A model generated the notes under the pieces. That model was not told the DNA's origin. It did not search any database and worked only from the letters and a program-made list of their open reading frames with translations. From Macrostomum lignano (taxonomy: Eukaryota): a DNA stretch of 64,000 nucleotides. Positions 4,381 through 57,094 of the stretch are shown here, piece after piece. The stretch spans positions 62,001 to 126,000 of the forward strand of contig NIVC01001382.1 in the NCBI GenBank assembly GCA_002269645.1. The letters are read 5' to 3'. The stretch's first letter is position 1. Every line of letters begins with the position of its first letter. The position numbers and the translations under genes are program-made.

Positions 4381-4872
4381 TCATCCACTGTGAAAGCGGA
4401 GGCGATTCAGATTCTCTGGGGCGTCCTCCATTTCTACGTCATCATAATCTGGTAGCTCTTCTGCTCCACTAGGATGTCTAGTACCTCCTCCAGAATGTCC
4501 AGTACCTCCACCAGAATGTCCAGTACCTCCACCAGAGTGTCCAGTTCCTCCACCAGAATGTCCAGTGGTAACGGTGTCGTATGGTGGTGGAGATCGTTCT
4601 TGTTCTTCTTGAACGGTAATTGCAGCGTCGACCATATTTCGGTATTTGATGGCGTTATGGGACTCCATGCGTTTATGTTTCAGAAAGAGACCTAAATGTT
4701 TAAGTAGTTGTTCCTCATTGACGAATGAATAAAATGTGTCCATGCCCTCTAGAATACTCAGGTCAACCTTTAGGATACTTCGATTATTAAGTGACCTGAT
4801 GATTTTTAGGGTCTTCTCCTTGTTTTTCCTAGCCTCGTTGTATCGCTTTTTGAGTTCATTAGCAGACGGCAT
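4381..4872 (-). CDS. Polinton accessory ORF, 163 aa, with (GHSGGGT)n repeat; function unknown
   Basis: Open from ATG 4872 (MPSANELKKRYNEARK...). A 21-nt tandem repeat at about 4475-4565 encodes GHSGGGT. Transcribed divergently from pPolB. Confidence 0.6.
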   Translation of the reverse strand: MPSANELKKRYNEARKNKEKTLKIIRSLNNRSILKVDLSILEGMDTFYSFVNEEQLLKHLGLFLKHKRMESHNAIKYRNMVDAAITVQEEQERSPPPYDTVTTGHSGGGTGHSGGGTGHSGGGTGHSGGGTRHPSGAEELPDYDDVEMEDAPENLNRLRFHSG

Positions 4873-5014
4873 TGTGATGCTAGTTGAGCTAAATTCTAAA
4901 CGTAAAACGAAAACTAAAACCAAAACCAAAACCTGCGAATTTATGGCAGCCGGCGTGGCAAAAAATTCATGTAATTCAAAAAATAACATGAAACTAGTGA
5001 CTGCTGAAAAACCC

Positions 5015-6815
5015 ATGGAAAACCCTCTTGCAACAAGGTACTACCTAGTAGGTTTTTTAATTGGAGATGGGATGCTTTGGAAAGCCCAATTAATGATACC
5101 ACCGCAAACATCTACGACTATAAAGACAGCATCCAATCAGTTGTTGATCACACACTCAAAACACGCAAGACCTTTAAACTACAGATATCATTCAAGATTG
5201 CGTTTTATATGCCTGCAAAACCCACTGAGCATCTCGAGTATTACATGACAACAAAGGCAAAGCCATTCACCCCTACATACACACTGGATCCTTTCCTTCA
5301 AGATGTCACTAAGAAAATTGAAGCGTTTACATCCATAGGTTCCGGATGGGTCGTAGGAGGGATTCAAAGAGCGACTGTTATGGTCATGAAATATGACCCA
5401 CTTAAAGCCTCCTCTTATATAGAGCTCCCGCATAAGCTTGCCGACAAAAAAGCTTGCATAAATGTTAAAAATAAAGACAATTGCTGTGCTCTATGGGCAG
5501 TTCTCTCTGCACTTCTTCATGATAGTGTCCTTCACCACCCCGAAAGAACCTCAAATTATCAAATTTATTTTAACGACTATCTTATCAAATGCGAAAAGAA
5601 GGGGGTCAGGTTTGACAAAGGAGGCTTGGCGATCTCGCAGATTTCAAAGCTAGAAGAAGTGTTTAATAACAAAATTAGAATCACAGTCTTTAAGTGGAGT
5701 GAAAAAACTGAGAAAGTTCAACCAGTCAGATGTAGCAAAGACGTTTTAGATCCTGAGGGGAAAAGGTGGACTGAAGTGGATCTTCTAGTGATTGGTAATT
5801 TACTAGAGGAGGCTCACTATGTTTGGATTAAATATCTTTCAAGACTCATTCACAAGCAGTTGAATAATCATCACGAGGCTGTTTCCATCTGCCGCTTGTG
5901 CTTTAAGCATTACAGTAGACCTGAACGTTTTGAAAAAAACTAGCAGAGCATGAATTATCATATGAGGATCACCCGACCAACTGCTCTCTTCCTTCAGCTG
6001 AAGAGAAGTATCTCCGGTTTAAGAACTATCACAAGATGGAGAAGCTCCCATTTGTTGTATATGCTGATTTCGAATGCTCAATCATGCCAGAAACTCAAAA
6101 ACAAACTCAAACTCAAAAACATGTCCCCAATTCAGTGGCATATGCCTTTATTACTACAAAGGGACTTGATGAGTATAATTATTTCTTTGGAGAGGAGTGT
6201 GTTGAGCAGTTTATTGCCAGAATGTTAGAGTTGCAAAAAGTGATTAGCACCCTTCAACCTGTTCCAATAATGATGACTGAGGAGGATGAAAGCAATTTCC
6301 TATCAGCAACTCATTGCCACATCTGCAGGAAACAGTTAACTTGCACTGATATTAAAAACCCCATCGTTAGGGACCACTGCCACTATACTGGGAAATTTAG
6401 AGGTGCAGCGCATAACACCTGTAATCTAAAGCTAAAATCGAACATTCATGATCTAACGATATTTTGTCACAACGCAAAGAACTATGACATGCATTTAATA
6501 GTTGAAAAAATCGGCATGATTCCAGACATACACCTTGACTGCATCGCAGAGAACAAGAAGTTTAAGTGTGTTGATATTAAACAGGATAATTCAGGTAAAT
6601 GTATCGGTTCGACTGAATGATTCATATCAATTTCTAGCTGCCAGTCTAGACGAACCAAGCATGAATCTAAAATATGAACAATGTACAGATACAAATATGT
6701 TTGCAAGTAAAATTAACAACAGTGATGAATCATTTAAACTTTTAAGAAAGAAAGGCTTCTACCCCTATGAGAATATTACTGGTTATCACGTATTTAAAGA
6801 AGGTTTGTGTGTAAG
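5015..6815 (+). pseudogene. Protein-primed DNA polymerase B (Polinton type), N-terminal and exonuclease half, frameshifted and 3'-truncated
   Basis: ORFs 5077-5943, 6036-6620 and 6535-6840 carry SSYIELP..KKACINVKN.D..C, ExoI VYADFE, an endonuclease-VII-like CHIC...RDHCHYTGKFRGAAHNTCN, ExoII HNAKNYD, DSYQFL and KGFYPYE. Sequence switches to terminal repeats near 6815, before the polymerase motifs. Confidence 0.88.
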
Positions 6816-8071: not shown

Positions 8072-8284
8072 TTATCCAAGCATTAAGTGTCTCACCAGAC
8101 GGCTCTGCTCAAGTTGAGATGCAGAGATGAAGCGGATGTAGTCCTGCCAAGAGTTTATTTGCTCAAAAACTCTTCGAGAACCCGCATCTGCAGCTGCAGC
8201 AGTCAATAACCTGTTATCGGACAGCTGGCAAAGTAGCCGCCCCTGAGCCGTGACTTGCGCCGAGAGGCCTTCGATCTGAGCCCG
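8072..8284 (-). pseudogene. Probable downstream part of the CACTA-like partner gene interrupted at 18267
   Basis: Reads RAQIEGLSAQVTAQGRLLCQL...RHLMLG on the minus strand. It abuts the truncated Gypsy at 8285 and continues the reading that stops at ...LTNEL (18268). The link is an inference. Confidence 0.4.
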
Positions 8285-8286
8285 GG

Positions 8287-9465
8287 ATGCGGCGGAAGGC
8301 CCCATTGGAGCCGATTCCCAGCAGCCATGTGTTTGAAAGAGTGATGGTGGATTTGATTGGACCACTGCCAACCAGCGTCCGAGGCAACAAATACATACTG
8401 ACGATGCAGGACGCGTTCAGTAAGTGGCCAGTGGCAGTACCGGTGCCAGATCAGACGGCCAGCACCTGTGCAAGGGCAATGCTCGAGGAGTGGGTCTGTC
8501 ACTACGGAGCCCCAGGGACAATCCACTCGGATCAGGGAGCCAATTTCGAGTCGCAATTGATCGGCCAGCTGTGCGAAAGTCTGAATATCCGAAAGACGCG
8601 TACGACCGCCTATCACCCCTCTGGAAACGGCCAAGTGGAAAGCTTCAATAAGACGCTGACTGCAGTGATCCGGGCGCACCTGGTGAAGGAGCCGGATCAG
8701 AGGCGGTGGGACGAATTCGTTGCCCCGGCGCTCATGGCGTATCGCTCCAGTGTGCACCGCGGCACCGGCTACTCACCCTTCTTCCTTCTGCATGGTTGCG
8801 AGATGTCTCTGCCAGTTGACTTGGGAGTGGCGCGCCCACTGGACATCGAACCGTACTGCGAGGAAGTCCAGAACCTGCGGGAGACGCTCGTGGAAGCCCA
8901 TCGGGTGGTGCGTGAGAGAATAACGTCATATCAACGAGTGCAGAAAGACTGGTACGACCGGAAGGTGAAGGGTCGAGAATTCTTGGCTGGCGACGAGGTG
9001 TTCGTCTACAACCCCGTGTTGAAGGCCGGTGCCAAAGCGAAGCTCCACTCACCCTGGACCGGACCTGCCGTAGTTCTCGAGAAGCTGTCGGAGACGCGCT
9101 ATAGGATTCGACAGGAAGGTCGACGGAAGCCGATCAAGGTGGTGCACTTTAACAACCTCCTGCCTCGGTACCGGAAGTACCCGGTCGACGGCACCGGTGG
9201 CCCTCGGCGTCCTGCACCAAGGAGGTACCACCCAGGTCCTGCTCAAGAGACGGAATCCGGCAGGGAGGACTCGCAGGAATCGGACGATGAGGATGAGGAG
9301 CGATGGTGGCGACATGCCGGGCGGGTTCGAGAGGAGGGAGAACCAATGGATGTGCAGCAGCCAGGAGTGCAGCCGCAGCCGGAAGCGCCAGTTGAAGTCA
9401 TCGAAGGTCGACCCCAGAGGGATCGAAGGGTTCCGCAGCGTTATGGAACGCCCGTTTATTATTAA
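8287..9465 (+). CDS. Gypsy integrase catalytic core and C-terminal domain (pol remnant lacking the HHCC N-terminus)
   Basis: VMVDLIGP, IHSDQGANFES, TTAYHPSGNGQVESFN (D-D35-E spacing) and a C-terminal SPWTGP motif. Open for 392 aa. Confidence 0.95.
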   Translation: MRRKAPLEPIPSSHVFERVMVDLIGPLPTSVRGNKYILTMQDAFSKWPVAVPVPDQTASTCARAMLEEWVCHYGAPGTIHSDQGANFESQLIGQLCESLNIRKTRTTAYHPSGNGQVESFNKTLTAVIRAHLVKEPDQRRWDEFVAPALMAYRSSVHRGTGYSPFFLLHGCEMSLPVDLGVARPLDIEPYCEEVQNLRETLVEAHRVVRERITSYQRVQKDWYDRKVKGREFLAGDEVFVYNPVLKAGAKAKLHSPWTGPAVVLEKLSETRYRIRQEGRRKPIKVVHFNNLLPRYRKYPVDGTGGPRRPAPRRYHPGPAQETESGREDSQESDDEDEERWWRHAGRVREEGEPMDVQQPGVQPQPEAPVEVIEGRPQRDRRVPQRYGTPVYY

Positions 9466-9492
9466 GAGCGGACGTGAGTGCGTGCGCAATGT

Positions 9493-9690
9493 CGCGTCAT
9501 CTCCTGCGTCATAAATAATTGGTTCGAAGCATCATCCGCGTCATCTCCTGCGTCATAAATAATTGGTTCGAAGCATCATCCGCGTCATCTCCTGCGTCAT
9601 AAATAATTGGTTCGAAGCATCATCCGCGTCATCTCCTGCGTCATCAACATTTGGTTCGAAGCATCGTCTGCGTCATCACCCGCGTTATTG
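9493..9690. repeat. 44-bp tandem repeat, ~4.5 copies; candidate internal promoter/enhancer
   Basis: Units start at 9493, 9537, 9581 and 9625. Each carries gcgtca twice, and the first three carry cataaata. The array lies just upstream of the accessory ORF. The regulatory role is inferred. Confidence 0.85.
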
Positions 9691-9886
9691 AAAACTGGGC
9701 TCGTGTTATTGCCTCTGCTTCACAAACAAAAATATATATTTCCCCTCTTAAGGCCCGTCAGTGGAGGTCCCACCTGCCCAACCCTGCCATCAGGGATGAA
9801 GGATCGGCGCCCCAAAGAGGCTCGAAGGAACCATTGCCCTGCTCTCAAAAGTGAGTCGTGGTTGTTGCAGGCACTGCTTTCCGGGC

Positions 9887-10738
9887 ATGGACCTCTACGC
9901 CGAGTTTGGTGTCAGCCCCTTCGCGACGGAGGAGGAGCTGCGACGTGCGTACCGCCGTGAGAGCCTGCATTTCCAGAATTTCCAGAGGCTGCAGCATGCG
10001 AGTGCGGTCCTGCTGTGTCCGTTTCGACGAGCGCTGTACGACCGGTTCGGGCAGGATGCCGTTAGCAACCCGCTCGAGTGCGCCCGGTATTTTGTCCCGC
10101 CGGATGGGATGTGCGTCCCGGAGGAGTTTGTCGTAACGATTGAAGACGAAACAGAAGAGTCAGACGAGGACAGGGAGTCGGAAGGAAGCGAGCGTGGTGG
10201 TTGCGGCGGCGAGGAGACTGCTCAGAGCTGCTATGAAATCACGCAGTCAGAGGAAGAAGAGCTCTTGAATGAATTCGACGGCGAAACTTCGATGTCAGAA
10301 GACGAACCGGAGCTCGTCATCGACCAACGGGAGTCGCCAGCGTGGCTGATGAGGAGCGAGCCGAGTACCGAGGTGGAATACACCTGGAGCGGGGAGGCAA
10401 CGCAGCGAAGAGCTCGAATCCGGTCGGAGCTTCGGCACGCTTTGTTGTCGGGGAGTCCAGCTGCGATGTTCCGGCTTTTGACTGAAATGGTGGGACTGTG
10501 CGGCAGCGAGCGGCTGGATCATCGACGCGAAATCGCCGAGCTTTTGGCTCAGACTGTCAAGTTCATTCTCCGTGACATCAGCGCCAAGTGTCGGGGTCAT
10601 GCTCGGCGTGTCTGGCGGCGGCCTGCCTTCAAGCGAAGCACTCGGTTCGTCATGAGTGTTGCGATCCCTCAGTTTGAACTAATCGACGGAGGACGCGTGT
10701 TGGGGTTGTTGCGCCGGGCGGCGGAGGTGGCGGTCTAG
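9887..10738 (+). CDS. Accessory ORF (283 aa) with N-terminal J-domain-like region lacking HPD, acidic linker and helical C-terminus
   Basis: MDLYAEFGVSPFATEEELRRAYRRESLHFQNFQRLQHASAVLLCPFRRALYDRFG follows the DnaJ helix I-IV pattern (DYY.ILGV...A...EI..AYR...F..I..AY.VL.D...RA.YD.FG). HFQ stands where HPD is expected. Confidence 0.7.
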   Translation: MDLYAEFGVSPFATEEELRRAYRRESLHFQNFQRLQHASAVLLCPFRRALYDRFGQDAVSNPLECARYFVPPDGMCVPEEFVVTIEDETEESDEDRESEGSERGGCGGEETAQSCYEITQSEEEELLNEFDGETSMSEDEPELVIDQRESPAWLMRSEPSTEVEYTWSGEATQRRARIRSELRHALLSGSPAAMFRLLTEMVGLCGSERLDHRREIAELLAQTVKFILRDISAKCRGHARRVWRRPAFKRSTRFVMSVAIPQFELIDGGRVLGLLRRAAEVAV

Positions 10739-10864
10739 GGGGTTCTGGGCAGGATGCCAGGGCGGGCAAGAGACCTTCACTCCTTCATTTCATCCCATCT
10801 CTCATCTGATCGTCGTTGTGATCCCTCTGTTTGGCACTGGGAGCGGCCCCGAAGGAAGGGCGGG

Positions 10865-11380
10865 GAACACTCTCGGCCATGCCCGGCGTTCTCGGTCGCT
10901 GCCCGGTGTTTTCGGCCGCTGCCAGTCGTTCTCGGCCGCTGCCCGGCATTCTCGGTCGCTGTCCGGCACTCTCGGCCATGCCCGGCGTTTTCGGTCGCTG
11001 CCCGGTGTTTTCGGCCGCTGCCAGTCGTTCTCGGCCGCTGCCCGGCATTCTCGGCCGCTGCCCGGCATTCTCGGTCGCTGTCCGGCATTCTCGGCCATGC
11101 CCGGCGTTTTCGGCCACAGCCCGGCATTCTCGGCCGCTGCCAGTCGTTCTCGGCCGCTGCCCGGCATTTTCGGTCGCTGTCCGGCATTCTCGGCCATGCC
11201 CGGCGTTTTCGGCCACAGCCCGGCATTCTCGGCCGCTGCCCGGCATTCTCGGTCGCTGTCCGGCATTCTCGGCCATGCCCGGCGTTTTCGGCCACAGTCC
11301 GGCATTCTCGGCCGTGCCCGGTGTTCTCGGCCTGTCCGACATCCTCGGCCCCTGTCCTGCGCTCTCGGCCGCTGCCTGAC
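10865..11380. repeat. GC-rich ~20-bp tandem repeat array inside the Gypsy 3' region
   Basis: Variants of cccggcattctcggccgctg. The six overlapping ORFs here come from the stop-free repeat. Confidence 0.9.
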
Positions 11381-11475
11381 ACTCTTGGTCTCTTTCATTC
11401 AGTTTCATTTCATAACATTTTTTTTTCATTTTCGTTCAGTCAAAGCGCGTCGTTTTCTTTTTTTAGGGGGGAGGG

Positions 11476-12447
11476 TGTTGTGACCTGTGTCACAGTGCTC
11501 CCCTGGTGCAAGTGCACTTTGATAGTTGTTGACTTTGGTAGTTGATTATTGTTACCCCCCCCCCCCCCGGCTCAAGCCAGTCTGGAGCTATGAGCCCTTT
11601 GGCTGAGCCTCTGCTCTCTTTCTCTCTCTCTCTCGCCTTGGCTGTTTAGCCCTTTGGCTAGCCGTGCTGATTGGCTGGGCCTCTGCTCTCTCTCTCTCTC
11701 TCCCTGGCCGTGCGCGCTTCCACCCTCCCCTCGCCGCAGCCAATCAGCTGTCAATCAGCTCCATTGCGTAAGCCCTTTCTTCCCCCCCTTGTTTGCGCCC
11801 CTGCCCCTTTTTACTCGTTATTTAAGGCGACGCTCAGACCCCGCCCCTTTTCTCACCGTGCCTGCGCCCATTTGCGCCCACCGCGATAAATAAACGAACG
11901 TGACCAGCGATCAACCGTAGAGACGGTCTCTTACTGCGAAGACTCAATTTATTGCAATCGATCGGCCTTCCCGTGTATGAGTGCTATAATCGACCCGGCC
12001 CGGTAAGCTGTCGAGACAATTGCCTGTGTTCCTCGGGGTCGCTCTCCTGATCTCTCTCTCTCTCTCACTCTCTCCTCAGTCTGACTCACCAGGCTGTCGA
12101 GTGGCCGACCGCCCGCAGCCCTCTCTCTCTTCCTTGACTCACCAGGCTGTCGAGTGGCCGCCCGCCCACAGCCCTCTCTCTTTTCCTTGACTCACCAGGC
12201 TGTCGAGTGGCCGACCGCCCGCAGCCCTCTCTCTCTTCCTTGACTCACCAGGCTGTCGAGTGGCCGCCCGCCCACAGCCGCCCCTCCCCTCTCTCTCGAC
12301 TTCTCAACCTTGCCCTCCCCCCGAAGTGTCCGTACGCCTCGGGGTCGCCGATCGAGCTCGTAAGCCCTGGGCAGTCCAGTACCCGAACCCCGACACCGCT
12401 ACCCGTCACCCAACCCGGCCGTGCCAGCGAGGAAGGGGGATACAACA
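11476..12447 (+). repeat. 3' LTR (972 bp)
   Basis: Starts tgttgt directly after the PPT and ends acaaca. aataaa near 11887. Internal ~45-bp repeats (ttgactcaccaggctgtcgagtggcc...) at about 12080-12290. Confidence 0.85.
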
Positions 12448-12569
12448 AAAGCTCTTGACTTACTTGACTTAGCTGCAGGGGGCGTCCGGCGGATGCAGCG
12501 GGGAGGCGGAGGAGACCGCCCATTCCGCTAGCCCCTGGCGACCAACGACTTCCGTTGAAGCGGTGTCGC

Positions 12570-15500
12570 TCAGGGGGACCCGTCGGTCTCGCCTGCAGCG
12601 CGGTCCTCCTCACCGACGGTGGGGAAGAAATCAGCTCGTCCGGTGTCCCTGAGGTACCGGGCGAGCAGCGGGATGCTCTCGGGCCTGCAAACGTCGGAGA
12701 GAACCGGGTTTGGCCCGAGGTGAGTAAGCCTGGCCCTGGTGAAAACCGGGCAGTGGCAGATAAAATGCTCGGCGTTTTCACTGCCTGAGCGGCAGAAGGG
12801 GCACCGCTCCTCGGGTACTTGGCCCTGAAGGAAGCGGTGGCGAGAGAAGCAGCCATGCCCGGAGAGGGCCATGCTAACTGCTCTGAGGTCTCTGCGGTTG
12901 AGCCTGAGGAGGGCTCTACGCAGGAGAGGAGAGGGACAGGGGACGGCAGCACGGGATTGCCTACAATTCCGGGTGTCGTGCCACCTGCGGAGATGCTCGG
13001 AGTCAGCCCAGCGCTTAACGCGGGAATTGATCACCGAGGCGGGGATGGGGGCACCCGGGCCCGGCCCCAATAGCGCGCCGGCGGAGCCAGCCTTGGCCAG
13101 CAGGTCAGCGCGCTCGTTGCCGAGGAAGCCGGCGTGGCCCGGGATCCATCTGAGCTCCACCTGGTTGCCTAGCGCAAGCCCGTTGAGCTGGGTGTTGCAG
13201 TCCAGGACGGACCTGGAGCTGGCGGTGCTGCGGCAGAGGGCCCGAAGGGCTGCTTGGCTGTCAGAGTGAAAAATAAATTTCCGGCCGCTAAGCTGCCTTC
13301 GGCGCAGCTCTGCCGCGCAGGAGCTGATGGCAAGCACCTCGCTCTGAAAAACACTGGAGTAGAGCCCAGTGTGCTGGGAGTAGTTCCACACCACTTCTCC
13401 CTTGAAGAAGACGCAAGCTCCGAAGCCTGAAAGACCATGCCTCATAGAGCCGTCAGTGTAACAGTGGACTTCAGAGTCGCTCCAGCTGTCACTCGCCTCG
13501 TGTCGAGGCTGAATGGTGACCTTATACCTTTGGCTCAGGAGAAGGGTGGCTGGGATCGAGTCCGTGAGGATGTTGAGCCCGCCACACTCCTCGAGAGCCT
13601 TGAGGCAGAGGTCAGAGTGCGGGATAAGCGACCGCTTCTTAAAGGCCCGCACTTTCTTGAAGGCCACCCCAGCATCCAGAAGACGCCGGGTGCTCTTCGC
13701 CGCCTCTCCTTTGATATAAATATCCAAAGGAGGGGCACAGAGGAAGGCATTCATGCCTTCAAAAGGAGTAGAGGGTGGAGCGCCCATAGTCATGCGGCAG
13801 GCTCTGCCCTGGATTTTGTAGAGAGCGTCGAGGTTGCTCTTGACGCTCAGGCCGCTAGCCCACACGAGGCTGGCGTAACTGATCGAGGGGCGAATGATGG
13901 CAGTGTAAATCCACCACAGCTTCCTGGGGGTGAGCCCCCAGGTGGTGCCCACGGCGCGCCTGATCTGAGCCAGTACAGCCAGGGCTTTTTTGGCTTTAGT
14001 TTGAATGTGCGGAGTCCAGTTAAGCCTGTGGTCCAGAGTGAGGCCCAGGCAGCGGACCTGCTTCTCCATGGAAATATTCTTTCCATAGAGGGTGAGGGGC
14101 TTAATGGTCCAGAGCAGTTTGTTGGTAACATGACTGCTGTGGTTTTCGACTCTGAGAGTCTAAGGCCACATTGGTCTGCCCAACGCTCCGCTCGTCCCAG
14201 AAAGCCCTGCAGAAGGTCTCTGATGGTATCAACCGAGGGGCCCGCGCATATCGCGGTCACATCATCGGCATAGCCCACCTTGAGAATGGGGTCGTGGAGA
14301 TCACTGCAAAGCAACTCATCCATGACCATGTTCCAGAGAACGGGGGTGAGAACGCCGCCCTGGGGGCCCCCTTTCAGGACAGGCACCGAAAGAGAGCTGC
14401 CGCTCAGGTGGGCCACAACAGTGCGGTTTCGGATCATGAACATGATCCACCGGACAAGGTGAGGGTGCGTGGCCCTGGATTCCAGGGCTCTGCAAAAGGC
14501 CTCGAAGATGACGTTGTCGAAGGCCCCCTCAATGTCCAGGAAAAGCGAGAGGGCAAAGCCGCTGCCAAGAACGGCCCTCTCCAGGAAGTCAACAATGACA
14601 TGGAGGCACTCTCGGTTGACCTGCCCGCGCGGAAGGCGTGCTGGTTCTGCGAGAGTGGGAAGCGCTTCAGCTCGACCGAAAGTAGGCGCCAAAGCACCAG
14701 TCTCTCGAGGAGCTTGAGGCAGAAAGAAGTGAGGCTGATAGGCCTGAAGGCCTTCACCGATTGGTAGTCGCTCTTTCCAGGCTTGGGGATAAAGACCACC
14801 CGGGCCTCTCTCCACGCAACTGGTACATAGCCCAGCTCCACACAAGCTCGAGGAGACGACAGAGCAGGTCCAGGAAGCGGTGGTTTTTCACCGCCTCGTG
14901 CAAGAACGCTGGGTAGATGCCGTCGGGCCAGGCGCCTTGAACGGGTTAAAGGACCTTGCCGCTCTAATAATGCGGTCTTTGGTGATCATAGACTTTGCTA
15001 GGCTTGCCCTCCCACTGTGTGGTCGGGCGGGCCCTGCTGAGTCGGAGATTTAGGGAAAAAACTGTTGAGCATGAGCTCTAGAGTCTCTTCCGAACTCTCT
15101 GTGACCGAGCCGTCAGGTCTCTTCACAACAGAGAGTTTAGAAAAACGGTCATTAGTGAGTGCCTTAACCACGCGGGCTACAGGGCGAGAGCCCTCAAGCC
15201 CTTCGCAATATTGGCGCCACTTGGCCGTCTTGGCCCTTTTGACTTGGCCCTTAAACTCGTGGATCGCACGGGTATAGGCCTCTCTGTCAGATGGGTCTTT
15301 GGTTTTGAGCGCTCGCCTTTGGAGGGTCCTGGCTCGGCGCCGAAGGGCCCCGAGCTCTGGGTTCCACCTGAGAGCAGATTTCTTGCCTTTATAGGCCTTT
15401 AGGGGGCAGGCTGCTTCAAAGGCAGTGGTATCGCCCCGCCAGGGAGGAGGCGAGATCGTCCACCACCTGGCAGTCAGAGAGGTCACTGGGGGGGTCAAGA

Positions 15501-16267
15501 TCCCGAAGGCCGCGGCTCAGCTTCGAGCCAAAGGCGGCCCAATCGGTGTTCCTGACGTTCCGACTCCAAGTGACCTTAGGCTTTTGCTTGGTCGGCCCAA
15601 TGCAAAAGCGGATAAAGCGGTGGTCCGAGAGCGAGTCCTCGTCCCACACTCGCCAGCCCGTAACTGCGGAAAGCAGTCCGGGTGAGGCGATGGTGGTGTC
15701 GATGACTTCGGCCCACCGCCCATTATTGAACGTTGGTGCATTGCCCACGTTACAGAAGTTGAGGTTAGTGCTGCTGACATAGGCCAGCAGCTCCTCGCCT
15801 CTGCTATTGATGTTCTTGCTGCCCCAATGCAGGTGGTGTGCGTTCACATCCCCTGCAATGAGCAGCTCGAACCGATGGGACGCAGCATAGTCAGTAAGGT
15901 TGACTAACGCGTCGCAGACAACTGGGGCATCGCCCGGGAAATAGGCAGAAGCTACCAGCACAGGTTTATTGGGAATGAGGTTATTGATTTGAACAACACA
16001 GATGTCCCCAGTCGAGAGATCAGGTCTCATCCATGCCTCAAAAGCTTTTGCAGCAAAGACCAGAGATCTTGGGCGAGGCTGAGAGCCCGCCATGCAAAAA
16101 CAGTGGTAGCCAGATGGCACATTATTTGGCTTACCTTTAGTCATCCAGGGCTCCTGTACGAAGACCAGGCCCGGAAGCTGTTGCTCTGCCGTGCGCATCA
16201 GGTTGACCGACGCCGCCACGCAGTGCTGGGTGTTGATCTGCAGACACCAGGTAGTCGCTGGCATCAT
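12570..16267 (-). pseudogene. LINE ORF2: APE endonuclease, reverse transcriptase, RNase H, C-terminal CCHC; about 4 frameshifts
   Basis: QINTQH, VQEPW, GDVNAHH, SDH (APE); VFIPKPGK, FRPISL, FLDIEGAFDNV, PQGGVL, YADD (RT); YTDGS, SEVLAI, SDSQAAL, WIPGH, GNERAD (RNase H); CPFC...EHFICHC. Split over ORFs 15416-16267, 14998-15498, 14434-14841/13847-14845 and 12570-14069. Confidence 0.95.
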
Positions 16268-17784
16268 TGCAGATCGGATGTTGCAGCCGCCAGGAGTTCC
16301 CCCTCCTCCTCGGCGCTCACCGGCTTCGGGTCGGGGTCGCCGGTGTCCATGGGCTCTTCTTCAGCAAAAGGCCCCCGATTGGCCGGAAGGCAGTAGGCAG
16401 CGTTCGCCGCCCTTTGCCCACCATCCATGGGGTCCTCCGCCTCAGATTGGCCCAATGCCCTGGAGCAGCCAGCCGCCTGGGCAGGCGGGTCCGTCTCCAG
16501 TCGGCCCTGCCCCGAGGGGTTGGGCCCAGCTGGGACGTCCCCACCCTCCCTGGACGAACTGGTGCGCCTAGGCGTCCCGGCGACCTCTCGCCTCAGCTGG
16601 GAGATTTTGGCGGTACGGACTGCCTCAGCTGCACGCTGGTACAGGCCGCGCCGCTTGGTGCTGCGCGCCGGGCGTCGGTCGCCTCCGCCCTCAGCAGCGC
16701 GCTCAGCTTTGCCCGCGCGGCCGTGCTGCCGGGCAGGGCGGTTTGCTTTGGCAGTCTGAGCAGAGGCTTGCGCCTCGGCCCCGGCCGCCTCCGCATCCCG
16801 CCCGCCCTGCTCACTGCCACGGGGAGGGTCGGCCTCGTAGGAGCGGATGCGCAGCTTCCAAAGGCCGACGTTGATGAAGCTGCCGTGCGGATAACGCTTC
16901 ATCCAGGCGTCCGACAGCCCCAGGATGGCTGTGAAGCCAGTGCCGTCGGTGCGCTTAAGGGTGTCATGCACCACAAGGCCCGCGGCGGGAAGCTCCCGGT
17001 TGACTGCTAGCAGTCCTTTCCGGAGCTCGTCAGCAGAGGTAACAACGCTCCTGGCCGGGACCCAGATTCGATGCCTCTTGGTCCGGGGGCGCTCGTCCTC
17101 TCTGCAGAAGGCTAGGTTGAGGTCCCAGCTCTGCTCGGCCAGCAGCTCAAGGAGCCGCCGACCCGAGTCAGCATCACTGGGCCAAATGAGAAGGCACGAG
17201 TCCCTCGTCGCATTCGAATGAACGTTCAGAGGCGTGCCCTTCAGAGTAAGCTTCCACAGGAGGCCATCAACGGCACTTCTCACCTGCTTCAGCTGATCGG
17301 GAGACAGGCGCGCGTCCTTTCCCAGGATGACAACCGCCGGTTGCCTCTTTGCCGCATCAGCGTAGGAGGCCCGGGGGTCAGTGGAGCTTTCTTCAGGTGG
17401 GCTGTCCACCCTCCCGGCTGCATCGGCCTCCCTATCCTGGGCAGGGGCTTCCGTGGGCTCGAGGCCCTCTTCCGCCACCGCCCCAGACTGGGAAGCTTCC
17501 GCTGCCGCGGGCCGTTGGCCCCTGGCACCGGTTTGGCTTCCGCCCTCCTTGGCCCGCCTCGCCTTGTTAAGTCGACGGCGGGCAGCTCCAGAGGTGGTGC
17601 TGCGTTTCTTAGCAGCTGGAGTAGCAGGTGTCTTCTCGGAGGCACCGCTCAGAGTTGGCTCCACGGGTCTCGCCGAGGCGTCCCCGATGGTAGCAGGTGG
17701 TATGGCCGAGGAGTCCACGGCCCCAGCCGAGGCCGGAGGCACTGTGTCATCCACAGCCGGTTTGTTACTTTGGTTAGAAGCCAT
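16264..17784 (-). CDS. LINE ORF1 (gag-like, 506 aa from ATG 17784)
   Basis: Open frame directly upstream of ORF2. Its stop overlaps the ORF2 start (ATGA at 16267-16264). The central domain resembles ORF1 proteins of LOA/R1-type elements. Confidence 0.85.
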   Translation of the reverse strand: MASNQSNKPAVDDTVPPASAGAVDSSAIPPATIGDASARPVEPTLSGASEKTPATPAAKKRSTTSGAARRRLNKARRAKEGGSQTGARGQRPAAAEASQSGAVAEEGLEPTEAPAQDREADAAGRVDSPPEESSTDPRASYADAAKRQPAVVILGKDARLSPDQLKQVRSAVDGLLWKLTLKGTPLNVHSNATRDSCLLIWPSDADSGRRLLELLAEQSWDLNLAFCREDERPRTKRHRIWVPARSVVTSADELRKGLLAVNRELPAAGLVVHDTLKRTDGTGFTAILGLSDAWMKRYPHGSFINVGLWKLRIRSYEADPPRGSEQGGRDAEAAGAEAQASAQTAKANRPARQHGRAGKAERAAEGGGDRRPARSTKRRGLYQRAAEAVRTAKISQLRREVAGTPRRTSSSREGGDVPAGPNPSGQGRLETDPPAQAAGCSRALGQSEAEDPMDGGQRAANAAYCLPANRGPFAEEEPMDTGDPDPKPVSAEEEGELLAAATSDLQ

Positions 17785-51278: not shown

Positions 51279-52225
51279 TGTTGTACTCGCGTGCTGCGAT
51301 CTCGTCTTGCCCGGTCGTTTTGTTTTCCCCGGGTAGCGGGTTCGGTGCGGGACTGCCCCGGGCGCGCGGCGGAGGGATGGACGGAGGACGAACTCGGGGC
51401 TCGGGGTACTTCCGCGGTCAGCGGAGCGGATAGCCACTCAGAGCCGGCCCGGGAGTCACCGAGGTGAATGTGAAGGATTGGCCGGGGCGTACAGACACTC
51501 CGGAACAATCAAGAGATACGAGGTGATGGATTAGCCGGGGCGTACAGACACTCCAAGCCAATCGAAGAGTGCAGGTGAGCAAGGGGCCGAGTAGGTGAAG
51601 CGATGAGGCGGCGAGGATGGAGGGAAGACACGTGCAGAGAGCCCCAAAAAAACGCGAACGCAACCCGAATAAACGTAATTTAAGCTTACCGGGCGGGGTC
51701 AAACCGACTCATGCAACGCAGTTTATTTGGCCGTAGTAACTGTTCTGGCAGCTCGGAGACGGCGGGTGGCACGGATTAGCTTGCTACGAAGTGTTCCGAA
51801 AGTTTACTGGGCTCGTGCAGTTTTGTACTTTTATGATAGTTTTCTTACTCAGTTGCTGGTGTAGCTCTAACCGCAAAAACCAAGCAGCGTGCCACCGGCC
51901 GGCTCCAAGCCAGCTAATAAATAGTATGCCAAAAAATGGGGGAGTGGGCCAAACCGGCCTGAGCGCAAATACTCACACAACAGAACCCCGCGAGCACCCC
52001 ACCCTAGCCCAGCCAATCAAAACACGCGCTGGGTAAGGCTCTACGAACGAGGGGGGGGGTAGAAAAGCGAGGGTCTGCCGGCCCAGCCAGCCAATCAGAG
52101 CACACGCCGGCTGCCTAAAACCAAAGCCGGCTGAACCAACTCAAACCAGCTAGGCCGGCAGACCGGGCGGTTCGCATGCACCAAAAAAACAAGTTGATGA
52201 GGTCATTGTGGCGCAGGCCACAACA
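51279..52225. mobile_element. Solo LTR (947 bp) of another family inserted in the 5' LTR
   Basis: tgttgt...acaaca termini and a 4-bp TSD aata (51275-51278, 52226-52229). Removing it restores the 3'-LTR sequence ctctgaaatatatgagtac. Confidence 0.85.
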
Positions 52226-52316
52226 AATATATGAGTACAAAACTCTCGCAATCGTCTGACAACAACCGAATGACTCAGTCTCCTTAGTGCATACATAGCA
52301 GTGGCGTCGCAAGCTT

Positions 52317-53270
52317 TTGAACTTTGTCAACTTGCGAGATATGTCGAAGTCACCAGGAAAAGTACCTGGTAAGACACCAGTAAAGTCTCCAGTGAAGATT
52401 GCAGCAATAGCTCCGAGCATGCTCTCACAGGATGCGACTTTGTCGAACCAAAGCAGCCGTCCAACGTCGGGAATGGCCCAAATAGAGCGATTGGACGTGA
52501 ACTCTAGCCTGGAGCGATGGATGGATCGCCTCGAGATCGCGTCGAAGTTCTTCAACTGGAGCGCGACCGACAAGGCTCAGGTGCTGCTTTTAAGACTCGC
52601 ACCGCAGCTGTTTGAAAAACTGGCGGACTATCTGGCGCCCAAAAAGCCTGGAGATAAGAAATTCGACGAGCTGAAAACAGCGCTGGAGGAAATAATGCTG
52701 CCCAAAACGTACGTCCTTGCCGAAGGATTCAATTTTCAAAGTATAAGACGAGAACCAAACGAAAAAGTGCGAGTGTTCTCCGAGCGATTGATCAAAGCGG
52801 CAGAAAAGTGTGAGTTTCAAAACAAGGACGAAAGACTGCGTGATCAGTTCATTTGCGGCCTAAACAACCAATGAATTATTGGGAAGCTTATCGTCAAAGA
52901 TCACAAGAAGCTCAGTTTTAAGGACGCAGCTAGCGAAGCAGAAGCGCATGCAAGTCTGTTGGAGACTCCTATTATGAAGAGTGCACCAAAAACTGAGGCT
53001 GGGTCCATCCTAAAGGTCGATTTATCGAAGCGTAGAACCGTCGAAAAGAAGAGCAATCAGACTCACGGAAAGGGTCTCGAGAAGGCGTGTCAAAAGTGTC
53101 GACGCGCACATGCCAGGATGCAGTGCCCCCCGTATGGGAAAAGTTGCAATAACTGCGGTAAGCCTAATCAATTTACGAAGGTCTGCAGAAATGGTGAGAG
53201 TAAAAGCAGGACATCAGGCGGAAATTCTGTACAACATGTAGCTGGGAGTGGAAACATTTTCGCGGCGGAA
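52317..53270 (+). pseudogene. Gypsy gag, degenerate
   Basis: WMDRLE, LRDQFICGL, then Zn-knuckle-like CQKC...H...CP..GKSCNNCGKPN.F.KVC. Stop at 52872. Confidence 0.85.
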
Positions 53271-53321
53271 GCCCGAAGGTGTTGTCAGCGACAGCAGCCT
53301 CGATAGCCGATTGCTATCACG

Positions 53322-56172
53322 GTGAAGATTCTCGAAGCAAACAGAGGGCATCCCATCCGTTGCGAGCTCGATACGGGAGCTGGAGTGTCGATCTTGTCAG
53401 AAGCCTTGTGGAACCAACTTGGTCGCCCAACTCTAAGACCTTCGGACGTAAAGCTGGGAGGCTATGCGAGTGACCATACGCTTCATGTATTGGGAAGGTA
53501 TGAAGCAACTGTTGATATCGAAGGCAAATTTCGGTCAATCAATTTGAAGTTGTGAAAGTGAACAAGAGCTACGCTCTTCTTGAAAGGGACGTGCCTTGTG
53601 TCCATCTGGAATCAAGTCAGGCTGTGGGAGAGGCGGCACCTTGTGCATCTATGAAAGCGCATCTAGAGTTAAAGGCGGGCGCGACACCGAAGCACATAAA
53701 GGCAAGGCCTGCCTTCTGCCCAACGTGAAGCTGTTCGAGAGAGATAGATCGATTGCTCCAGGAGGGAATCATAGAGCCTGTACGTTTCGCAGAGTGGGCA
53801 TCGCCTATTGTGGTCGTGCCGAAACAACGTGGAGGAATTCGGCTCTGCGTGGATTACAAAAGGACTCTAAACCCGCAATTGGTACCTGACAGTTACCTGA
53901 TGCCGACTCCGGAAGAGGCGTTTTCAGTAGTATCTAGCTGCAAGCGATACACACTGCTCGACTTGGAGAAAGCCTACAATCAAATCGAGCTGGATGCCGG
54001 ATCAAAGCCGCTAACAGTGATGTCAACACCATTTGGGAATTACCAATATAACAGACTAGTGTTCGGGATAAAACGGCGCCGTCCATTTTCCAAAGATATA
54101 TCTCAGAAGTAATTCAGGGAATCAATGAATCTATAGCCTACATAGATGATGTGTTGATCGGTGGAAAGGATGAGGACGAGCTGTTATCAAGAGAGGAGGA
54201 GGTTCTGCAGCGGCTGGAAGCAGAGGGACTGCGTGTAAATAAGGAGAAGTGCCAGCGGAATCAAAGCAGGATTCGGTTTTTGGGCCACATACTCGACAAC
54301 GGCAACATTTACCCAGACAAAGAAAAAGTTAGTGCAATTAAAGACATGGAAGCGCCTAAAAACCTGGCTGAGCTAGAATCATTCCTGGGCTTAGTGGCAT
54401 TTTGCTCGCGGTTCATTCAGAATTTAGGTGACCTGACTGCTCCGCTGATGCAGCTGAAGCAAAAAAATGTACCCTTCGAGTGGGGACCGAAACAGAGCAA
54501 GGCGCTGGAAAACCCCAAAGCTTCAATATCTAGAGATGCGCAGCTAACGGCCTATGATCCAGATCGGCCTATGGAGCTCGAGTTCGATGCTTCGCAGAAG
54601 GCCCTGGGAGGAATTCTGAGCCAGGAGGGTCGTCCAGTGCTCTACATCAGCAAAATATTGTCGAAGGCTGAGCGAAATTACTCGCAGATAGAACGTGAGG
54701 CGTTGGCCATAGTTTGGGGTGTTCGCAGATGCCATCGATTCTTGTGTGGCAGGAAGTTTACGCTGGTTACCGACCACAAACCGCTGGTTTACATATTTGC
54801 CGTGGACAGCGAGCTACCTGCTCGTGTTTCAGTGAGATTGCAGCTTTGGTCGATTTTGCTTACGGCGTATGACTATGAAATCAAATATCGAAACACCAAG
54901 GCGATGTCATCAGATGCGTTGTCCAGACTAGTATCGCAGCATAAGAGTAAAGCAACTTTGGAGATTGGAAATGTAAATGCTTTCTGCACGCTGTTGCCAA
55001 CTAAATTGATGATAAAAGCAACTCGAGAATGCAACGAGATGCAGCGCTTGTTGAGTGCTATCAGATCAGGAAGTTTCAAGTCACCGAAGCTACGAGCCTT
55101 CAAGCCGGTCCGAGATGAGCTCGAGACAAGACGGTCTAATTCTTCGAGGTCATAGAGTAGTGATACCTCGATCACTGCGTTGTAAGACGATCGGAGTGGT
55201 TCACCAAGCACACTTAGGAATAGTCAAATCTAAATCTCTGGCAAGAACTGAGTTCTGGTGGCCAGCGATGGACAAAGACTTGGAGAAAATCATTAGCAAG
55301 TGCTGGGTATGCCGATCAGCCAAACCACAACATAGAGTTTTTCGGACGCCCTGGCCGCAGGCTGCTGGGCCATGGCAGCGAGTTCAGAGAGTTCATGCAG
55401 ATTTTGCAGGACCAATTCAGAAACAGTACATCTTGGTGCTGGTAGACGCATACACTGGTTACCCAGAGATTTACATCGTTAGTCGACCACAGTAATAGAA
55501 CGTCTCCGTCGAACGTTTTTCCAGTTCGGAGTACCACAAACTTTGGTTACCGACAACGGGCCGAGCTTTATGAGTTCTGAATTGAACCAGTGGCTCACGG
55601 AAATCGACTGCGAGCATCTTACTACGCCAGCATATCATCCGCAAAGCAACGGTGCGGCTGAACGGCTGGTAAGAACTGTGAAGGAGACAATAGAAGCAAA
55701 CGGGTTCAGTCAGAAGACGATTGACCGTTTTCTTTTGTTTTATCGAGCATCGGCTGGCAGAAACGGTGTTTCACCTGCAGAGCAACTGTTTGCGAGAAGG
55801 ATTCGGGTGCCGTTCACTGCTAGGCAGGTCGGTCTTGAGGAGCAGGTGATTTACAAGAACTTCCGAGATGCTGCGGTTCCGGCAAGAATTGTGCTGCAGC
55901 TAGGAAGGAGCATGGCGCTCATCAAGACTGAGAAACAGAAGCCAGTCTACCGGAGGGCTCATCTGGATCGACTGAGGCCATGCACTGACTCTGATCAACA
56001 GCCTGGAGGGCAAACGGATCAGACGGCAGAGCAGTCCGATATCGACCAGCTGCCCAAGTCCGGGGAAGAGGGAGAGCCGGAGGACAAAGAGCATCTCCCA
56101 TCGGAGGATCAAGGCCAGCCACGGCGCAGCTACCGACTGGCGCTAAAGCCACGGATTGACTATAGATTCTGA
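53322..56172 (+). pseudogene. Gypsy pol (protease, RT, RNase H, integrase), frameshifted
   Basis: LDTGAGVS; WASPIVVV, RLCVDYK, YIDDVLI; FDAS, NYSQIEREALA, TDHKPL; HQAHLG...CWVC, HADFAGP, VTDNGPSF, NGAAERLV. Confidence 0.93.
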
Positions 56173-57094
56173 TGTTGGCTTGAGCTTGCATTGTCTATTC
56201 ACTAACTTGCGATACCCATTGTAAGGGGAAGGTGCTGTGTGTGGGCTCAAGGCCATAGACACCTGGGAACCACCACAGTAAGTTTATTTTATAATGTAGA
56301 GCAGAGCAGAATTTAAAGAAAGCCAAGAGGCCTAGAAGACGCTTGGCGTGAGCGCTCTGAAATATATGAGTACAAAACTCACGCAATCGTCTGACAACAA
56401 CCGAATGACTCCGTCTCCTTAGTGCATACATAACAGAGAGAAAATTTTTACTCCGCTGTGCTCTTTATATTGAAAAAAGACATGTCTTCAAAGGGTGAGC
56501 TCGTCTTTCGCTACAAGGAGTCAACGGCGAAGTTAACCACTTTTACCACGAAATCGCTGCTGTTTGGCCTGAAACTGTATTGAAAGACTTTGATATCAAC
56601 ATTATTTTGAAGTCGATACCTATCGACTAGAAGTTTACAAAGGAACGGGACCTTTTCGATCTTCTAGACAAGTTGAACGCTGCAAGAAGAAGCCAGGAAG
56701 CCGCGGCTGCTTCAACTACGCAACAGGGGATCAAAGCCAATCGAAAAAAGAAAATTGGAGAAGAAGAGCGAAATATTTTCTCGCGTGGTTACCCGCTCGC
56801 AAACGAGTCAAGAGTTGCCTTAACTAATATTATCATCGTTTGGTAATGTCTCTCATACTATTGTCCGCTGTATGAGAATTTTTGCGGAGCAATCTTATTA
56901 TCATAAATATATCAGTGAAGATAGGTAAATTGAGTGAATTGTGACTTGTGAGAAAAAAGCAAGTTCTTTCGTAGGATCAGCACCCCGGGTTTAGGGATTT
57001 AAAGTCTTAGGGATCTGGTTTCGCGTTGCGAATCGAATGTGGGGAGAAGAATGCAGATTATCTTCTGATTGTTTCGAAGATGCTATGGGTGGAT

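Follow-up and report, generated by a model that had tools for sequence, protein, structure and literature searches.

The window analysed here is a stretch of 64,000 nucleotides of the flatworm Macrostomum lignano (contig NIVC01001382.1, positions 62,001 to 126,000, forward strand), and it contains the 3' part of a Ty3/gypsy long terminal repeat (LTR) retrotransposon that carries an accessory gene between the end of pol and the 3' LTR. A preliminary description of this DNA had placed an intact open reading frame (ORF) of 283 amino acids in the env position, after the integrase and before the polypurine tract and LTR, and we confirmed that the frame at 9887–10738 (+) is open for all 283 codons. 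The encoded protein consists of a J domain (approximately residues 1–58) and a C-terminal domain (approximately residues 166–283) with an acidic linker between them. Our results suggest that a lineage of gypsy elements carries this gene as a conserved and apparently undescribed co-chaperone cargo. The features of the copy are as follows.

8279..9465 (+), 3' end of the Ty3/gypsy pol; the copy is 5'-truncated and the family sequence begins at approximately 8279
8287–9465 (+), integrase ORF, with Pfam rve and Integrase_p58_C
9493..9668 (no strand), tandem repeats, approximately 4 x 44 bp, in the interval between pol and the J gene; ATTGG and CGTCA boxes seen by eye
9865..9870 (+), putative acceptor for splicing or trans-splicing, 16 bases 5' of the ORF start
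9887..10738 (+), accessory ORF, 283 amino acids, encoding a J domain and a basic C-terminal domain (predicted to have five helices) on either side of an acidic linker
9968..9986 (+), copy-specific lesion, a net loss of 10 codons including HPD; a small piece of the neighbouring DNA is repeated at the break
10868..11390 (no strand), GC-rich tandem array with a unit length of approximately 20 bp, downstream of the ORF and upstream of the polypurine tract
11465..11475 (+), polypurine tract, read from the sequence
11476..12447 (+), 3' LTR of 972 bp, with 6-bp inverted termini and TG...CA ends
11819, 11889 and 12003 (+), LTR signals: TATA-like box, AATAAA and GTAAG donor, respectively
11915..11956 (+), spliced-leader exon of the host, copied within the LTR and identical to the published leader in 41 of 42 positions

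The integrase at the end of pol, the polypurine tract and the TG...CA LTR identify the element as a Ty3/gypsy LTR retrotransposon, as had been proposed, with the qualification that this copy is truncated at its 5' end and that no gag, reverse transcriptase (RT) or 5' LTR was found in the window. A M. lignano protein shares 98% identity with the window integrase. Positions 8100–12600 were compared with contigs from 4 of the 20 runs that bear the stretch, representing four studies, and in all four runs the LTR end was joined to position 8279 across 3,760 letters that are absent from the window. This insert is the 5' part of the element that is missing here, and the joint corroborates the LTR end at 12447. 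Gag and protease are present upstream in the gene model of a sister copy, P0126, but absent from the window copy. Apart from the lesion, only 7 substitutions in approximately 2,500 bases separate the window copy from the main contigs of run X1, indicating that the family is young. The depths of the ORF and pol contigs were alike within each of the four runs (527.6/518.7, 29.6/30.6, 264.9/286.9 and 11.9/14.6), a hint that the ORF belongs with the element.

The preliminary description had read the protein as a J domain that lacks the histidine-proline-aspartate (HPD) motif, a reading that is true of the window copy and not of its family. Residues 2–52 of the window protein match Pfam DnaJ with an E value of 8.5e-5, but the score of 23 bits lies under the cut-off of 27.8, and alignment with solved Hsp40 J domains leaves a gap of 9–11 residues exactly at the HPD loop. 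With HPD absent and the Pfam cut-off missed, the window copy does not by itself qualify as a J domain. The short direct repeat that had been suspected of marking a copy-specific lesion was confirmed at 9969–9986, and the suspicion is supported: in all four runs the contig that spans the ORF has 30 extra in-frame bases at 9968–9974, and this longer contig takes all of the depth at these positions. Read by eye, the extra letters include the HPD codons and keep the frame. The same difference was seen between P0126 and the window protein, which align with a 10-residue gap after residue 28 and with identity in 242 of 271 columns. Because the motif is retained in the contigs of every run and in all six relatives that bear a J domain, the sister P0126 among them, the loss of HPD is, almost certainly, specific to the window copy and not a trait of the family. 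The repeated piece of neighbouring DNA at the break resembles a templated repair scar. The case also illustrates how one decayed copy can pass for a "pseudo-J protein".

Relatives of the window protein were sought by a profile-free search of 1.84 billion protein representatives, which gave 6 matches, 5 of them sharing the C-terminal region (E values of 5e-16 to 1e-8). The other, P0122, was rejected as a family relative, being an ordinary insect J-protein in which the J part alone matches. Scoring 8,000 candidates against a profile of the C-terminal domain gave 4 matches, including 2 new ones, and the cluster to which one of them belongs yielded P0127. P0126 (UniRef A0A1I8H0P8) is a M. lignano gene model with a gag zinc knuckle, protease and integrase domains, followed by the same ORF with its HPD and a Pfam DnaJ score of 45.7 bits. 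P0118 (UniRef A0A1I8G8I7), also from M. lignano and automatically labelled "J domain-containing protein" in UniRef, is collinear with P0126 from the protease through the integrase tail and the J gene to a repeat-derived stretch, at 26–35% identity, indicating that a second, distant family has the gene in the same place. A repeat-derived peptide thus lies downstream of the J gene in both gene models, and the J gene follows pol in two M. lignano families that are approximately 30% identical. The earlier suggestion of a captured J-domain gene in the env position is therefore supported, the gene being a stable cargo of two divergent families, both of which keep HPD.

Conservation across the relatives follows the domain boundaries. 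HPD lies at residue 30 in every J-bearing relative (the fragments P0121 and P0125 do not extend to the J part), and all five relatives that were scanned exceeded the Pfam DnaJ cut-off, with 45.7–68.7 bits. Identity between sequences was 42–73% in the J part, 27–45% in the C part and mostly 20–33% (range 8–49%) in the linker, so that both domains have been kept around a fast-changing acidic linker. The GC content by codon position of the ORF (0.65/0.46/0.69) fits that of the integrase (0.65/0.45/0.66), and this, together with the five relatives that match beyond the J part, argues that the ORF is more than a chance frame. The J gene is very probably a selected cargo of the element. In a quick tree of 59 of 60 rows, 5 integrase rows from Logan/JGI-type sources grouped with the window integrase (Shimodaira-Hasegawa-like approximate likelihood ratio test, 97), a grouping that fits a small clade but establishes no linkage. 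A word-index homolog search with the window protein returned none of 2,537 candidates, a metagenome scan with P0120 gave 146 pattern matches and no relatives, and viral contigs held no relatives of the C-terminal domain or of the integrase. The 44 integrase loci from metagenomes were distant (23–43% identity), many of them short and many probably insertion sequence (IS) elements; as a weak control, none of the 44 matched the J profile, and the C-profile matches in 6 of them were weak, 30 residues long (E values of 0.002–0.04) and taken as chance.

Because P0127 stood in for the window protein in the fold prediction, the results on the J-domain fold refer to this relative. Its model comprises a J domain, a linker of low confidence and a separate helical domain, and the J part has a predicted local distance difference test (pLDDT) value of approximately 90 over most of its length, a Foldseek probability of 1.0 to solved J domains, and overlays on many of these with a root mean square deviation (rmsd) of approximately 1–2 A. 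The J-domain fold, and the order of acidic linker and helical domain that had been proposed from the letters of the window, are thus supported by the model. The closest solved structure to the J part of P0127 was the DnaJ chain 1bqz, and the closest to that of P0119 were DNAJB12, DNAJB1 and DNAJC5. A bacterial origin of the J domain, suggested by the former match but not by the latter ones, is no more than a possibility.

The C-terminal domain, modelled from six rows with P0120 first, is predicted to form five helices (pLDDT 87, predicted TM-score 0.81). In all seven proteins the domain carries a net charge of +10 to +15, and a loop holds invariant Arg-Arg and Trp residues; the basic charge is weak evidence that the domain may bind RNA. 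It matched no Pfam family at its cut-off, only designed helical proteins appeared below E 0.1 among PDB sequences, and Foldseek found nothing at E<=0.001 in either PDB or BFVD; the Atlas gave no usable match. The top structural match was to a cobalamin cap (Z 8.3, rmsd 2.9, 80 aligned), within the usual range for helical bundles, and the match to the N-terminal helical domain of FAM86A (Z 7.6, 3.1 A, 98 residues) is likewise not significant for a helical bundle and no more than a lead. These missing matches do not show that the fold is new. On the strength of its confident model, the domain may nevertheless be regarded as a new module, whose partner would name the target of the protein. No transmembrane helix was predicted in the seven proteins (highest 19-residue hydropathy 0.94–1.56), and the absence of a transmembrane or signal helix rules out an env gene. 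The class A and B Hsp40 traits, a glycine/phenylalanine-rich region and beta-sandwich client domains, are absent; with an acidic linker, an all-helical C-terminal domain and no DnaJ_C match, the protein falls into class C by exclusion. Assignment to the Type IV (pseudo) J-proteins was rejected, since the loss of HPD is confined to the window copy. The linker of all seven proteins contains a short acidic Leu-Leu-type motif (residues 122–127 of the window protein), a pattern that was chosen after the sequences had been seen and that has shuffle fractions of 0.01–0.20.

Several signals bear on how the gene may be expressed. The YTNCAG at 9865–9870 is the only one between the integrase stop and the ATG of the ORF, and in M. 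lignano this motif ranks first at the acceptor sites of trans-splicing (PMC8629364). The J gene would be expressed as a subgenomic RNA joined to this acceptor by splicing or trans-splicing, with the GTAAG in the LTR (12003) as a candidate donor, and the 44-bp repeats upstream may possibly act as an enhancer or internal promoter. Contigs of runs X6 and X12 cover the ORF, a weak hint that it is transcribed; we guess that these are RNA libraries, and their high leader depth fits, the depth of the leader bin relative to the element body (calculated by hand) being approximately 5,200x and 5,900x in X6 and X12, and approximately 40x and 70x in X1 and X11. No perfect or one-mismatch triple unit of the canonical heat-shock element was found in the LTR.

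Compared by eye with the published leader of M. lignano (PMC5173321), the copy in the LTR lacks the final TG and is without the leader's ATG. Its 27-base core is unique in the window and occurred in 0 of 100 shuffles. Contigs of run X1 at element depth span 11717–11941 and 11928–12111, so that both junctions of the copy are features of the family. The AATAAA (11889) precedes the copy by approximately 20 bases, and a contig of X6 stops at 11913; the arrangement fits the idea that a trans-spliced 5' end was captured at the RNA 3' end during reverse transcription, the alternative being a start-site mimic. A whole spliced-leader RNA gene was considered and rejected, as the leader region does not fold better than shuffles (z +1.57), and Rfam gave no matches in 9400–12600. 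Several other contigs from the DNA-like runs carry the leader with different flanks (loose ends at 11915–11921 and 11955–11956), which suggests that further genomic leader copies exist, either as retrocopies or in other LTR families. Among the literature matches listed, no title concerned leader copies in LTRs.

Taken as a whole, the observations are best explained by an HPD-bearing J-protein, encoded as an accessory gene of this gypsy lineage, that acts via Hsp70 on the particle of the element, with the window copy as a lesioned member; we place the probability of this explanation at roughly 55%. HPD is required for Hsp70 stimulation (PMC13254874), and its presence in all six J-bearing relatives, sister copy included, makes the family protein look like a working co-chaperone. 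On the basis of this motif, the family J domain would stimulate host Hsp70, and it is probable that the protein works through that chaperone. The C-terminal domain, joined to the J domain by the acidic linker, would select the client, which may be the element's own RNA-Gag particle during assembly, export or uncoating. This client is favoured by analogy with CERV of the Cer1 element and by the charge of the C-terminal domain, and we advance it tentatively. It is likewise conceivable, at about the same tentative level, that an old, flatworm-restricted gypsy lineage encodes an Hsp70 co-chaperone of its own, equipped with a new targeting domain, for particle remodelling or for disarming PIWI loading, and that it expresses this gene as a downstream cistron via the host's spliced-leader trans-splicing, which would have left the leader copy in the LTR. 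Among retrotransposons, such a protein would be the first counterpart to the J domain of polyomavirus T antigens. Machines of Hsp70 and J-proteins are involved in the folding and uncoating of viral particles and, in flatworms, in the stabilisation of PIWI proteins; a retrotransposon with a J-protein of its own would act directly where element replication and host silencing meet. Knock-down methods exist for M. lignano. Transgenesis is also available in this species (PMC12801592), making the question testable.

A number of points weigh against this explanation. Only two families show the linkage to gypsy pol; M. lignano is the source of both, and the evidence comes in part from automated gene models. 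The Logan and JGI records P0117, P0119, P0120, P0121 and P0127/P0125 come without DNA context and could be host genes. The family is small, comprising five of the six matches of the profile-free search and four by the C-domain profile. Nothing points to a particular client, and both the client and the action on Hsp70 are predictions. The 7 joints listed include no spliced joint to the acceptor at 9865–9870, and a separate subgenomic RNA was not seen, the depth of the ORF being no greater than that of pol in the two presumed RNA runs. Finally, the short form of the ORF was in no contig, so it may be an assembly error, as contigs drop rare variants.

The main rival explanation is counter-silencing, in which an active J-protein directs Hsp70 at the PIWI/piRNA machinery or competes with a host J-protein that stabilises PIWI. 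The J-domain evidence fits this equally well, the family is young and homogeneous, and planarian DNAJA1 binds and stabilises SMEDWI-2 (review PMC11663942). However, the planarian result comes from another flatworm order, and neither sequence nor fold connects the C-terminal domain with client domains of the DNAJA type or with known silencing suppressors, and we consider this explanation unlikely. Less likely still is a hijack of host signalling in the style of the SV40 T antigen or phage Rki, with Hsp70 dismantling a heat-shock-factor or cell-cycle complex in stem or germ cells. Known mobile J-proteins act in this way (PMC13254874), M. lignano LTR families exploit the heat-shock response (PMC12801592), and the Leu-Leu-type linker motif, although picked post hoc, is in all seven proteins. 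Nevertheless, inspection of the alignment by eye showed no LxCxE motif, the LTR measures 972 bp compared to 223–402 bp in the families with heat elements (PMC12801592), and feedback through heat shock is made less likely by the lack of a canonical heat-shock element in the LTR.

We regard as improbable the proposal that the gene is a passenger, captured as the mRNA of a lineage-specific host J-protein and of no benefit to the element: five relatives are without known context and the leader copy implies that the element does acquire host RNA, but two families of approximately 30% identity keep the gene in the same position with both domains and HPD intact, and the 1.84 billion representatives include no broad host family with the C-terminal domain. 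The preliminary description's idea of an HPD-less decoy, selected to block or scaffold Hsp70, hardly survives as anything other than an artefact of one broken copy, for although pseudo-J proteins exist (PMC13254874) and the in-frame lesion would still permit a protein, the short form occurs in 0 of 4 runs, the relatives keep HPD, and the window copy has neither 5' LTR nor gag.

The gene combines two known kinds, the gypsy accessory ORF and the virus-type J-protein, and what is apparently new is their combination in an LTR retrotransposon. The J-proteins of viruses, such as polyomavirus T antigens and Rki of phage RB43 (PMC13254874, PMC3486835), are likewise mobile, HPD-bearing members of class C and presumed recruiters of Hsp70, whereas the carrier here is an LTR retrotransposon and the C-terminal domain is unrelated to any family searched. 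The list of chaperone hijackers in the available text of PMC13254874 covers phages, polyomaviruses, herpes ICP22 and Plasmodium and does not mention transposons. Among retrotransposons, the third ORFs of rotifer Ty3/gypsy elements, which encode GDSL esterases and DEDDy exonucleases (PMC5408684), are also non-env cargo in sense orientation between pol and the 3' LTR, as are the captured genes described as additional ORFs in plant Ty3/gypsy elements. The cargo here differs from these in being a co-chaperone; neither "DnaJ" nor "chaperone" occurs in PMC5408684 or PMC6338049, and DnaJ is also not mentioned in PMC6431247 or PMC8775202. CERV, from Cer1 of C. elegans (PMC10309623), is an invertebrate gypsy accessory protein that is made from a spliced RNA and acts on the RNA of its own element, but no J domain is described in the abstract of that study. 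The giant planarian gypsy elements Burro and GYPSM1 (PMC6431247) are also flatworm elements with host-like regulatory domains, but there the cargo is BIR, BCL2, MATH, ankyrin, ubiquitin-like and env, mostly within a giant polyprotein, and a J domain is not named in the portion available.

The heat-inducible LTR families of M. lignano (PMC12801592) share host, superfamily and a link to the chaperone system with the element studied here, but they carry heat-shock elements in short LTRs, of which the window family has none. The main text of that study contains no mention of DnaJ, J-domain, Hsp40 or chaperone, and its supplements, as far as available, name no such cargo. Three short motifs of the element had no match in its supplement 5, whose long runs are cut, and the DnaJ rows of its expression table could not be mapped to the ORF at 9887–10738. 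No retrotransposon-encoded J-protein appeared among literature titles, a scope that leaves outside the M. lignano LTR classification of Biryukov et al. 2020, Repbase and Dfam, and a literature search combining Macrostomum, retrotransposons and DnaJ returned 0 papers.

The window also contains other elements. A second gypsy-like element, with RT/RNase H-like and integrase-like frames seen by eye, lies in pieces at approximately 52000–57000 (+), and as a weak control it gave no J match. A LINE-like (long interspersed nuclear element) element at 12454–17784 (-) has ORF1, an endonuclease, an RT region and RNase H, and its 3' end lies approximately 7 bases from the LTR end. Broken ORFs at 5209–6800 (+) include a match to endonuclease VII and resemble what we take to be Polinton-type DNA polymerase B regions, and an ORF of 211 amino acids with 21-bp repeats lies at 4381–5016 (-).
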